Shown here: one piece after another, positions 3,001 through 6,000 of the stretch
How the letters are laid out: each line of letters begins with the position of its first letter
Numbering within the stretch: the first letter of the stretch is position 1
Virus record (IMG/VR): IMGVR_UViG_2897352509_000007
DNA: 64,000 nt
Strand: one strand, 5' to 3'
Source of the DNA: a virus
Lineage: Duplodnaviria > Heunggongvirae > Uroviricota > Caudoviricetes
Made by a program: the position numbers

Positions 3001-6000
3001 TGTTTGCGCATTGATGCCGAGATACGCTTCCAGTCTTCGCGGTCGTTGTCGATAACTTCATTTTTTGCCCAGCGATGGATGCTGCCGTCAATGTTTCCGG
3101 CATCCACATCACCAGGCCAGAGAGCGTAGGCCAGTTCGTCATCCAGTGTTTTCCATGTCTGCTTATATTCGCGACGAATGACTGCAGTGACAGGGGGGAT
3201 TTTTTCTGCTGAGTTTTCAGTGTGCTGTCGGTGGACTCTGGCGCGGGCGAGATCAACAACAGACGTGTATTTTCCGGTTTCCTTGCGTTCACCTTCGCGA
3301 CGTTTTTTCCAGATGCGCATTTCTGCCTGAATTTCGGGCCATTTGGCACCAGGCTTACATTTATGCTTAACCCACCCGATGGCATGCAGCTTAAGCTCCG
3401 GATACATGGCGTTAACTTCTGGCATTTTCATCAACGCTTCAACGATATGTCCGTCGAATGTTGCCATGTCTTCCTGCAACAATTCCTGCGCGCTAATCAC
3501 CATATCAACGGTGATGTTTTCACATGTGTCGAACTTAACCATGACAGCGTTCTGTACTTCAGGGGCCAGCTTGTCAAAAGCGACGTTCATCGGATCGGAT
3601 TCAGTCTCAACCGGGACAAAGGAAGCAGCCCCCTCATCCCAGCGGTTTTCCTGCATATATTCAGCATCCCAGGAATCGAGGGCAGGGCGGGGTATACCGG
3701 GTTTATCCTCGCAAACAAGAAATTTATAAGCGCAGTCCTGAGCAGCCGGATAATGCTCCAGGAATTGCCAGTGAAATTTTGCGCGGGCGCGACGTTCATC
3801 ACCGGCTTCAATGGCAGTGGCTACAGCGACTGCACCTTCTTCCTTTATTGCCTGTTCGTCCGGAATGGCGGCGCAAATAAAGACTTTACTCATTTTGTTT
3901 TACCTCATTACAGATTTAAGGGTGAACAAATCCCTGCCATTGCTGGCATATAAGAATGAAATCGGATGTTTATTACGGAACTGTTTTAAAGACCTGCCGG
4001 GATTTCGTTATTATCATGGTGAATAACTTTATCGACAGGGTAACAGTTACCGGGAATTTTCTGTTCGGTTGCTGCAGTCACACACTCCTGCATTGTCCTG
4101 TGAACACTGACTGCAATATCAACTGGCTCTCCGGAAACAAGAAAAACTGTCAGAACAAGTGCAAATGCTGTATTCATTGCCAGCATCCTTTTTGTATCGG
4201 ACGTAAACGGGCCAGCATTGAAAGAATGCATATTTTATTTAATAACTCCCGTTCGTGTTTTCTCTTGTTAATGGCATCTTCAGTAAATACAGGGTTACTG
4301 ATAGTGACACCAATTTCAAAACAACCTTCAGACGTATTAACGTTTGGTAATAACGTTTCCATTATCGCGTCCTCAACAATGAATTTTGTGATGCGGTGCC
4401 TGGTGCCTCCAGGTGACGTTAACCAGTTAACAATTAACGCCGGATACAGAGAATCCACCCATAACACTGTTTTTAGCTTTAACTGTTCCGCGTGCGCTTA
4501 GCCGCATTCACTGCATCACAAAATTCACTTTAAAAAGGGCGGACATCAGTTCATGGGCAAACAGATGCCGCCAAACGTCACCAGAAAATTGATAACAGAG
4601 GGCGTTGCAGCGGGGTTGTCACTTAAGCGTATGGTCAACCTGACAACCCGGTGTCCTCAACGGGGAAGGAATAACCCCGCCATACTTACCGCTGCGCCAT
4701 TTCGCGGAGTGCCACAACCGGAAGCGCACGGTCGACGAAAATTTAACGACAGGCTATCTATGAACCAGCAACCTCGCCGTGCGCTTTCGCGTTATGCTCT
4801 GACTTTTCAGAGAAATATCCTTTCAGTAAACTGTCAGTGCCGGATGTTCACCCGTGTCCGGCGCACGCACTCCACTTCACCCGTGGAGAACTCCTTAATT
4901 ACCAACCCTCAGGAGGGTGAATGTTAAAATCAACTCTTATTGCTAAATGCCTTTATCAAAATCGCATGGTAAGCAGCATTTCAATAGGCGAGTCTGCAGT
5001 TAAAAGTATTTTCGAAGAGTACTTTCCCGGGCATGATTTTAATAAATGGAATACCAAATTACCGCCAGCAGTTTCAACGCGTATTCTGAAAGCAACCGAA
5101 AGAGCAAGTACAATTCGCGTTAACTATTTCATTAAAGATTTGTGGGATCTTTGATATCCACAGAGCCTAAAGTATGTGCATATGGATGTGCTATTATGCG
5201 CCCTCGCAGATTTGCATCATTTTCTAAATTCACTGAACGAAACAGGGCATCAACAAGGCTCTGTACAATGCAAAGGCAATCGAAGACTGTCGCCGTTTCT
5301 GTTTTGATTGATGAAAGAACATGGCCATTCACGCAAACAGAAATTACCCGTTTATTAACATCGCTTTCCTGCTTTTGATTATCAGAACCATATAGCCCAG
5401 AAAAAGCATTGCGCACATTACGAACCATATTATCGATGGTTTCTTTTTCTGCGGTACTAAGGTCAAGAGTAGCCAGTTGTGAACGAACTATATTCGATGC
5501 CATTTCCTGTAATGGCGTTGGTAAATCTTTAAATTCCATTATTAGCCTCGTTGGTTAGCTATTAACGTGGGTATGTAATCATTCTGGCAATGCTTAATGC
5601 CGCTGCTTTTTCCAGATTGGTGATATCCTGCTCCAGAGCGGACAGATTTTCAGCCTGCTTAGCCCTGGCTTCATTGGCCCATTTCAGGTCCTGCACCGCC
5701 TTAATTTTCTGGTGCATCCACTCATAAAGTTCATCATCGGTATAGTCTGGCGCGATGATGACGGGGTCTCGTTTCTGCATGTCGGCTCCTTGTGGTTAGC
5801 GTTGCCTGCTTTTTAACCACGTCAGGCGAGGTGGTATCCTCTGAGGGGTCTGTTACTCGAGAGGAAATTGGTTATGAATACAATCAAGTTTTCTTGCCCA
5901 GAATGTGGTGGCTAAGTCTTTGACACATCCTTTAAGCCGCAGGGCTCTGACAGTTTCGCGGGAGCCATCTGCAAAAATTGTGGTCACCTTGTAACTGAAG

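Follow-up and report, generated by a model that had tools for sequence, protein, structure and literature searches.

A tail-to-tail gene pair in a polymorphic slot of the dicB-operon region of Escherichia coli prophages, and its possible part in prophage conflict

The dicB-operon region of a prophage in IMG/VR virus record IMGVR_UViG_2897352509_000007 carries a compact cassette of two convergent, overlapping genes that is the subject of this analysis. The 64,000-nucleotide (nt) stretch of DNA that was analyzed, referred to as the window, matches the genome of Escherichia coli O157:H7 of the Sakai type. It contains prophage A, which starts at base 1 beside ompW and corresponds to Sakai Sp9, and the beginning of prophage B at 58275, just beyond the annotated end of Sp9. 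Prophage A carries the cassette and prophage B lacks it. One of its genes, here called Y, encodes a protein of 77 amino acids (aa); the other, X-long, encodes 135 aa and ends in a domain that we call X. The 135-aa gene is co-oriented with ydfC, dicF, and dicB; the 77-aa gene alone runs against the operon. The features of the cassette are these:

4908-5541, the segment found only in prophage A (the cassette), 634 bp, delimited by junction alignment.
4921-5154, plus strand, gene Y, 77 aa, ECs1762, WP_000920491.1; an open reading frame (ORF) that is a hypothetical protein in RefSeq, antisense to the early-left operon.
5132-5539, minus strand, gene X-long, 135 aa, ECs1763, WP_000394552.1; an ORF, hypothetical in RefSeq, PHROG family phrog_1363.
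5132-5154, both strands, 23-nt overlap of the two ORFs, coding both C-termini (Y ...KDLWDL*, X ...IKDPTNL*).
5378-5539, minus strand, N-terminal constant domain of the 135-aa protein, residues 1 to ~50-54 (MEFKDLP...), common to the sense genes of all alternative E. coli cassettes.
5132-5377, minus strand, X domain, residues ~55-135, homologous to stand-alone proteins of 75-95 aa.
63138-63150, the empty-site junction in prophage B, ACCAACC/TTAGC, from blastn and junction alignment.

Comparison of the window with itself by blastn aligns 4258-4907 of prophage A with 62501-63150 of prophage B at 91.9% identity, and 5529-5780 with 63138-63389 at 94.0% identity. The first-pass annotation of this DNA had described about 640 bp of sequence particular to prophage A, with junctions near 4905 and 5545 and a composition richer in AT than the flanks, and both statements are borne out. 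The guanine-plus-cytosine (GC) content is 0.391 in the segment against 0.486 in the left flank and 0.481 in the right (each of equal size) and 0.496 for the window mean; about 10% of 634-bp windows are equally AT-rich, and the compositional break is real, though moderate rather than extreme. The presence of extra DNA in prophage A thus stands, while its description as an insertion is only one reading of a multi-allelic site at which the empty state is the commonest. The same annotation had also correctly outlined the two convergent ORFs, their sizes, strands, and 23-nt overlap, and the Shine-Dalgarno sequence before each, which is AGGAGG 4 nt ahead of the ATG for Y and GAGG 7 nt ahead of the ATG for the 135-aa ORF. 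PPompW-type prophages and Sakai Sp9 carry the 634-bp segment with 100% identity. Y and Sakai ECs1762 do not differ (100% identity), and Y and the 135-aa protein are each encoded once within the window.

No family had been recognized for either protein, and our searches agree with that. Pfam, NCBIfam, and PADLOC (2023) gave no match for the cassette proteins, nor PADLOC for YdfC, and PHROGs places both proteins in families of "unknown function." Among 73 Y and 68 X family members the sole Pfam match was a ClpX-type zinc finger, present as a fusion in two X homologues, and the proteins of four alternative cassettes described below had no Pfam match and fell entirely within PHROGs families of unknown function. 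Neither accession is present in the DefensePredictor supplements, and literature searches by the RefSeq accessions of Y and the 135-aa protein found nothing. The folds of X and Y are unclassified, and both genes are genuine.

Full-length homologues of Y with 55-72% identity, nearly all of exactly 77 aa, are found in 8 or more genera, including Klebsiella, Dickeya, Xenorhabdus, Salmonella, Morganella, Yersinia, and Serratia. Searching 1.84 billion representative proteins with a profile gathered 163 family clusters at 50% identity, almost all of 74-80 aa. The AlphaFold2 model of Y consists of five helices with a mean predicted local distance difference test score (pLDDT) of 96.8, and the near-invariant positions of the family (I7, C10, L11, F31, W43, and I71) lie mostly in the hydrophobic core. 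Profile searches against PDB sequences returned no useful solved structure resembling Y, and the sole match in a Foldseek search against BFVD was an uncharacterised member of Y's own family. An arginine-rich stretch is absent from the sequence of Y. Three longer homologues (P0244, P0255, and P0283; 113-115 aa) have a low-complexity acidic C-terminal tail ending in a conserved ...(F/I)NGRT, which may be a short docking motif.

Sequence comparison shows that the 135-aa protein joins an N-terminal domain specific to the slot to the widely distributed X domain of ~80 aa. The N-terminal domain begins many other E. coli prophage proteins whose C-termini are unrelated, and it is shared with phrog_6937, 2151, 9419, and 33007. 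The X domain aligns with a stand-alone Serratia protein of 79 aa (35% identity, E 3e-15), and an alignment-based search collected 96 clusters of X homologues, most of 75-95 aa, from a dozen enterobacterial genera. The structural model of the 135-aa protein (mean pLDDT 69.6) predicts a helical hairpin (residues 8-23 and 35-47), a disordered linker (48-60), and an X domain made of a beta-hairpin plus helices. The conserved polar residues of the X family are NG, DY, E..EAN, and H. In some Citrobacter-type phages (P0198, P0227, P0229; positions 3001-3420 of locus L119) a ClpX-type C4 zinc finger lies N-terminal to X in place of the MEFKDLP domain. We considered X as an antiterminator like N of lambda, as it occupies the N position in some phages, and rejected this for a protein that lacks an arginine-rich motif and whose predicted structure is a folded one.

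The tail-to-tail arrangement of the two genes is conserved well beyond E. coli. X and Y face each other in all ~20 distinct enterobacterial phage loci examined, with overlaps of 23-30 nt, and also in Bryobacterales and in one metagenome contig. The pairing was checked by a hidden Markov model (HMM) scan of six-frame ORFs over the fetched loci. Every diverse Y locus scanned in this way has a convergent X, including those of Proteus, Photorhabdus, LSJC7, two Bryobacterales metagenome-assembled genomes, and 15 non-E. coli viral contigs; the overlap is mostly 23 nt, with a few cases of 26-30 nt. The Y homologue of Serratia prophages converges with the 79-aa X homologue with an overlap of 23 nt. 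Approached from the X side, Hafnia and Erwinia loci carry Y as well, overlapping by 26 and 23 nt, respectively, and the Citrobacter locus with the zinc finger-X fusion has a convergent Y of divergent sequence that had been missed by the gene caller. A narrower Y alignment, searched against metagenomes, gave 14 contigs, mostly short. Y occurs without X in Psychrosphaera and in most short environmental contigs, although one of these contigs (L107) does have X with the 23-nt overlap. The stand-alone Y genes of environmental contigs suggest that Y is autonomously active and that X is an accessory partner.

The position of the pair is also constant, X always lying in the early-left unit and adjoining the immunity region in the loci examined. 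Phages of Hafnia and Serratia have, in order, a cI-type repressor, a strong intrinsic terminator, a promoter-like site TTGAC(T/G)-16-TAAACT, and then X, which makes X the first early-left gene there. In Proteus and E. coli, X follows the ydfC homologue, and in Bryobacterales it overlaps by 4 nt a small helix-turn-helix (HTH) gene that diverges from an S24-type repressor. There is no terminator between X and Y, so the early-left transcript would have to cross Y in the antisense direction to reach the genes downstream.

Within E. coli the cassette occupies a slot between two landmarks of the operon, the DicF locus and ydfC, as the first-pass annotation had placed it:

5562-5780, minus strand, ydfC homologue (RefSeq name), directly upstream of X in the operon and forming the right boundary of the slot.
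4537-4586, minus strand, DicF-like small RNA (sRNA), downstream of the cassette in the operon and the left landmark of the slot; 43.5 bits, below the Rfam gathering score of 48.

The DicF copy of prophage A is divergent, whereas that of prophage B (62778-62829, minus strand) is canonical at 76.7 bits. The RefSeq neighbours of both cassette genes are ydfC, dicB, and a DUF1482 gene. Between ydfA/ydfC and dicF we found at least five cassette types, in addition to empty sites, with the following frequencies among 5426 complete E. coli genomes:

Sense gene 135 aa, antisense gene 77 aa (X-long and Y), 3' overlap 23 nt, 658/5426 genomes.
Sense gene 201 aa, antisense gene 63 aa, 3' overlap 23 nt, 8/5426 genomes.
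Sense gene 133 aa, antisense gene 64 aa, 3' overlap 41 nt, 169/5426 genomes.
Sense gene 208 aa, antisense gene 69 aa, 3' overlap 0 nt, 599/5426 genomes.
Sense gene 126 aa, antisense gene 73 aa, 3' overlap 11 nt, 88/5426 genomes.
Empty junction as in prophage B, the commonest state, at least 2703/5426 genomes (~50%).

The X-Y cassette is therefore found in ~12% of complete E. coli genomes, mostly in Shiga-toxin-producing lineages (O157:H7, O145:H28, O121, and O111). All five sense proteins have the common MEFKDLP N-terminal domain and differ in their C-termini, and the small antisense gene differs with each cassette. This joint change of C-terminus and antisense gene reads as the signature of cognate partners under diversifying selection. 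The 201-aa protein equals the 135-aa protein as far as ...GSVD and continues with 66 unrelated residues; its partner is the 63-aa protein and not Y. In four of the five cassettes the junction CCAACCCTCAGGAGGGTGAA lies directly before an ATG on the antisense strand. The ATG after the junction starts the antisense gene in four cassettes; that of the 133-aa cassette opens a short ORF lying upstream of the 64-aa gene. Considered with the cross-genus conservation of the convergent pair, the covariation speaks for a pair of cognate, probably interacting proteins within a conflict or switch module. The first-pass annotation had regarded the site as one where lambdoid phages carry exclusion, toxin-antitoxin (TA), or anti-defence genes. 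The behaviour of an accessory hot spot, with five cassettes and empty sites, supports that view in part; a classical type II TA architecture does not hold, as the genes converge instead of sharing an operon.

Two further arrangements were seen around this slot. In NZ_CP027454.1 (L124), representing O121-type strains, an IS600 element at 1441-2729 lies between ydfC and the start of X, and the cassette genes are intact; the element would separate X from the early-left promoter, making the O121-type strains presumptive natural polar mutants. Immediately downstream of the repressor gene, and still upstream of ydfA, prophages with the 201-aa variant (L003 and L005) have a PaaA2/ParE toxin-antitoxin pair, a placement which implies that the early-left region stacks several small accessory modules.

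The sequence preceding Y contains several candidate control features:

4804-4920, plus strand, Y upstream region, shared with prophage B except for its last 13 nt.
4804-4832, plus strand, weak promoter-like site, TTTTCA (4804-4809), 17 nt, TAAACT (4827-4832), matching at 8 of 12 positions; a putative promoter.
~4837-4866, plus strand, GC-rich hairpin.
4870-4888, plus strand, hairpin CTCCAC/GTGGAG.
4900-4920, plus strand, hairpin over the Shine-Dalgarno sequence (AGGAGG, 4911-4916).

RNAfold gives -32.6 kcal/mol over 96 nt for this region in the window. In non-E. coli phages ~80 nt upstream of Y is conserved in the form GTGCCTG-TCTTTTCACCAC-NTCAGGC-NNGGTGGTA-TCTTGG...CCAAGAAG...ATG. An nhmmer profile of this element (GTGCCTG..CACCAC..CAGGC..GGTGGTA.., followed by a hairpin of anti-Shine-Dalgarno and Shine-Dalgarno sequence) shows that it also precedes unrelated genes that lie antisense in the early region. 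The genes behind it encode Y, a zinc-ribbon protein, membrane proteins of 107 and 171 aa, and proteins of 147 and 163 aa, at loci L006, L010, L012, L083-L095, L119, L120, L122, and L123 and at 5802-5846 in the window (nhmmer E 2.5e-9). The upstream region of Y itself in the window has no detectable homology to the element, and Rfam has no family for the sequence upstream of Y in the window and five related loci. Within the element a pyrimidine stretch can pair with the Shine-Dalgarno region, and the pairing is kept in the compensatory variants TCTTGG/CCAAGA, CCTTGC/GCAAGG, TCCTCT/AGAGGA, and CCTTC/GAAGG; the hairpins do not exceed shuffled controls in stability (z -2.7 to +0.7). The conserved block GGTGGTATCTT could be an extended -10 promoter, or alternatively part of a translational leader. 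The compensatory variants of the adjacent hairpin would call for transcription of that sequence, but in stability, as just given, the hairpins do not stand out from shuffled controls.

The window copy of the element stands upstream of a second small antisense gene, in the interval between ydfC and the repressor. This is a 66-aa zinc-ribbon ORF (5874-6074, plus strand; CPECGG...CKNCGH), in which codon 14 is TAA (5913-5915) in the window and GAA, with an intact ORF, in other E. coli contigs. The RefSeq annotation instead has, on the opposite strand, a 99-aa ORF (5853-6152) that fully overlaps the zinc-ribbon gene; this 99-aa ORF may be a shadow ORF.

Evidence that Y is made, and that it contacts RNA, comes from the work of Zammit et al. 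(NAR 2025, PMC7618764), in which uninduced Sakai stx- was grown in MEM-HEPES and the ultraviolet (UV)-cross-linked RNA-bound proteome was recovered by TRAPP, the purification of total RNA-associated protein. ECs1762 was significantly enriched in this proteome, and His-TEV-FLAG-tagged ECs1762 expressed from pBAD24 was radiolabelled above the superfolder GFP (sfGFP) control in a polynucleotide kinase (PNK) assay; the authors note that it has no detectable RNA-binding domain (PMC7618764). RhsFI, an immunity protein, was likewise cross-linked to RNA, and RNA targets were mapped for RhsFI and not for ECs1762 (PMC7618764). Because ECs1762 was detected natively in uninduced Sakai, Y is translated in the lysogen (PMC7618764), and a lack of translation, which the first-pass annotation had named among the observations that would refute it, is thereby decided in favour of the 77-aa gene in enterohaemorrhagic E. 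coli (EHEC). ECs1763 is known as an OI-57 marker in the typing of Shiga toxin-producing E. coli (STEC) (PMC4060028).

The reading that we tentatively favour is that Y is a lysogen-state effector acting on RNA and X its immediate-early antagonist. The cassette would be a self-contained, matched two-protein module within the early-left (PL-like, dicB) operon. Y, whose transcription opposes that of the operon and which is present and RNA-associated in the repressed lysogen, would act on phage or host RNA, for example as a superinfection exclusion factor or a post-transcriptional factor. X, because it sits behind the repressor-controlled early-left promoter, would be read from that promoter and appear only on induction or infection, when it would bind Y through the X domain and cancel its activity. 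Since no terminator separates the genes and their 3' ends overlap, early-left read-through across antisense Y would shut off Y expression at the same time by transcriptional interference. We infer that X and Y bind, which of them antagonizes the other, what the biological target is, and that transcription interferes; the conservation of the pair and its overlap, the place of X, the slot's polymorphism, and, from published work, the expression of Y and its cross-linking to RNA are shown. A broader proposition, which we regard as rather unlikely in its full extent, is that the pair is the first known case of a new class of prophage conflict module, in which Y, an RNA-binding protein whose five-helix fold has not been seen before, is on in the lysogen to act on the RNA of incoming phages or of the host, X is its tail-to-tail immediate-early antagonist, and inhibition by protein combined with convergent transcription turns Y off at induction. 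The slot would then swap at least five matched pairs by way of a shared N-terminal "handle" and a shared leader.

Several observations weigh against Y as an RNA-directed effector under the control of X. A promoter scan with a 9-of-12 threshold found nothing upstream of Y in the window, and likewise nothing in 12 of 16 other loci. The isoelectric point (pI) of the E. coli Y is 9.5 against a family median of 5.6; the family is not generally basic, and RNA binding may be a trait of particular members, or indirect, or weak. Over-expressed ECs1762 was the protein used in the PNK assay (PMC7618764). No exclusion or toxicity phenotype has been reported for X or Y. Finally, Y is a pseudogene beside an intact X in Photorhabdus (L015) and in an E. 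coli contig (L096), and X is present without Y in the 201-aa variant, so neither X nor Y is strictly dependent on its partner.

A reversal of the roles is nearly as likely as the Y-effector reading, and like it falls well short of being established. X, or any of the other variable C-termini, would then be an early host-takeover effector or toxin and Y its cognate immunity protein or antidote, kept on in the lysogen against leaky X and blunting the same effector when delivered by a superinfecting related phage. The combination of a constant N-terminus, a variable C-terminus, and an adjacent small cognate gene resembles polymorphic toxin-immunity loci; the X family retains conserved polar residues, while the conservation of Y, mostly in its hydrophobic core, is as expected for a binding scaffold, and orphan Y genes would be like orphan immunity genes. 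Lysogen expression of Y and the RNA cross-linking of the immunity protein RhsFI are also compatible with this assignment (PMC7618764). Against it, the partner gene is convergent, where known polymorphic toxin loci have co-directional genes, no secretion or trafficking domain is present, and X persists where Y is inactivated (L015 and L096) and where it has another partner, as in the 201-aa variant. The two proteins might instead form a regulatory switch for the development of their own prophage, Y binding early-left RNA such as the dicF precursor or leaders and X modulating it, thereby tuning induction, RNA processing, or the lysis-lysogeny decision. The pair does lie inside an early regulatory operon (in E. 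coli, directly upstream of dicF), with X at the expected place of the first early-left gene; convergent overlapping transcription units are a known switch design, and Y cross-links to RNA (PMC7618764). We nevertheless judge self-regulation improbable: the module is dispensable, prophage B and about half of E. coli genomes having an empty slot; unrelated cassettes are allelic at the slot; dicF is not beside the pair outside E. coli; and a polymorphic, mobile unit is more in keeping with accessory or conflict genes than with core regulation.

X and Y might also be two independent accessory genes, neighbours for no other reason than that the slot accepts insertions, with an overlap that reflects compaction without coupling. 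The overlap of other convergent pairs in the slot is 0, 11, or 41 nt, X and Y each occur without the other, and the element upstream of Y in other phages also precedes unrelated antisense genes that have no obvious partner. That adjacency, orientation, and a near-constant overlap are kept over ~20 diverse loci and across phyla while the surrounding genes differ, and that the sense C-terminus and antisense gene change together in E. coli, makes independence decidedly improbable. A classical type II (or type I) TA addiction module is a very remote prospect. Small paired prophage genes with one partner expressed in the lysogen would suit it, and the way the convergent 3' ends overlap is reminiscent of type I systems such as fst/RNAII. 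The convergent genes do not form an operon, however, the searches turned up no toxin or antitoxin of known family or fold and no DNA-binding antitoxin domain, and neither protein is a small hydrophobic peptide, both being soluble and conserved, with grand average of hydropathy (GRAVY) values of -0.13 and -0.17 for the two cassette proteins. Each partner also occurs without the other, which addiction modules tolerate poorly.

Morons are usually single genes with their own promoter and terminator, lambdoid examples being bor, lom, and rexAB of lambda, and the concept is said to be due to Hendrix and colleagues. The cassette resembles a moron in being discrete, lower in GC than its flanks, dispensable, and mobile between phages, and in that Y is opposed to the surrounding operon and expressed from a repressed prophage (PMC7618764). 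It differs in consisting of two convergent genes with a conserved pairing, one of which, X, is part of the early operon; as to a promoter and terminator of its own, only the 8-of-12 site at 4804-4832 was found, and no terminator lies between the genes. The Nun protein of HK022 is an RNA-binding exclusion protein that is expressed in the lysogen and encoded at the start of the early-left operon. Like Nun, Y is small, encoded beside the immunity region, made in the lysogen, and RNA-associated, and Nun is a precedent for RNA-binding exclusion. Unlike Nun, Y has no arginine-rich motif and shares no sequence or fold similarity with it, is predicted to adopt a compact five-helix fold, and is antisense to the operon with a dedicated partner gene.

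The slot as a whole is similar to polymorphic toxin-immunity systems of the contact-dependent inhibition (CDI), Rhs, and colicin types, in its constant N-terminus, swappable C-termini, co-changing small gene, and orphan small partners. Its sense proteins, in contrast, are tiny (126-208 aa) and have no delivery domain or recognisable toxin domain (Pfam, five proteins), the partner is on the opposite strand in all five cassettes, and the locus lies inside a phage early operon. A parallel within EHEC is RhsFint-RhsFI, an effector-immunity-like pair on an EHEC-specific island whose small protein came up in the same TRAPP screen and was confirmed to cross-link to RNA despite lacking a known RNA-binding domain (PMC7618764); the sequences are unrelated, however, and RhsFint-RhsFI is an accessory locus of the type VI secretion system (T6SS) with co-directional genes. 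Type I TA systems (fst/RNAII) and lambda cII/oop share with X-Y the facing transcription units and a 3' overlap permitting interference and RNA duplex formation, but X and Y are both conserved proteins, and their overlap codes for protein on both strands.

Both genes were already annotated, and Y had been flagged as a candidate RNA-binding protein. In the literature searched there was no report of X and Y as a unit, of the dual-coding overlap, of the domain fusion in the 135-aa protein, of a polymorphic slot of matched pairs, or of the shared upstream element. The cross-genus unit, the lysogen-made partner that cross-links to RNA, the place of X at the head of the early-left operon, and the swapping of matched pairs turn two "hypothetical proteins" into a specific, testable hypothesis. 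If either the defence-plus-antidote or the effector-immunity form of it were true, the pair would represent a new RNA-binding fold among prophage conflict systems and a new design principle, that of a convergent overlapping pair embedded in an early operon. Such a module could bear on prophage-prophage interactions in multi-lysogenic EHEC.

Some other features of the two prophages were recorded. Prophages A and B are adjacent at ompW, and their integrase/excisionase regions (1-2462 and 58275-60735) are 97.4% identical; the arrangement fits a prophage integrating beside or into a prophage, as described for PPompW and Stx2a phages (bioRxiv 10.1101/2020.11.04.367953). A 124-aa ORF at 4553-4927 (plus strand), running antisense through the DicF region to the start of Y, was considered as a further gene and set aside as a probable shadow ORF, having no family match. 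A weak match to STnc100 (32.5 bits; 4343-4548, minus strand) lies over the dicB upstream region of prophage A. Elsewhere in prophage A are a full STnc100 (16823-17031, plus strand), a sok antitoxin RNA (11702-11851, plus strand), and the AgvB sRNA (17033-17092, minus strand).

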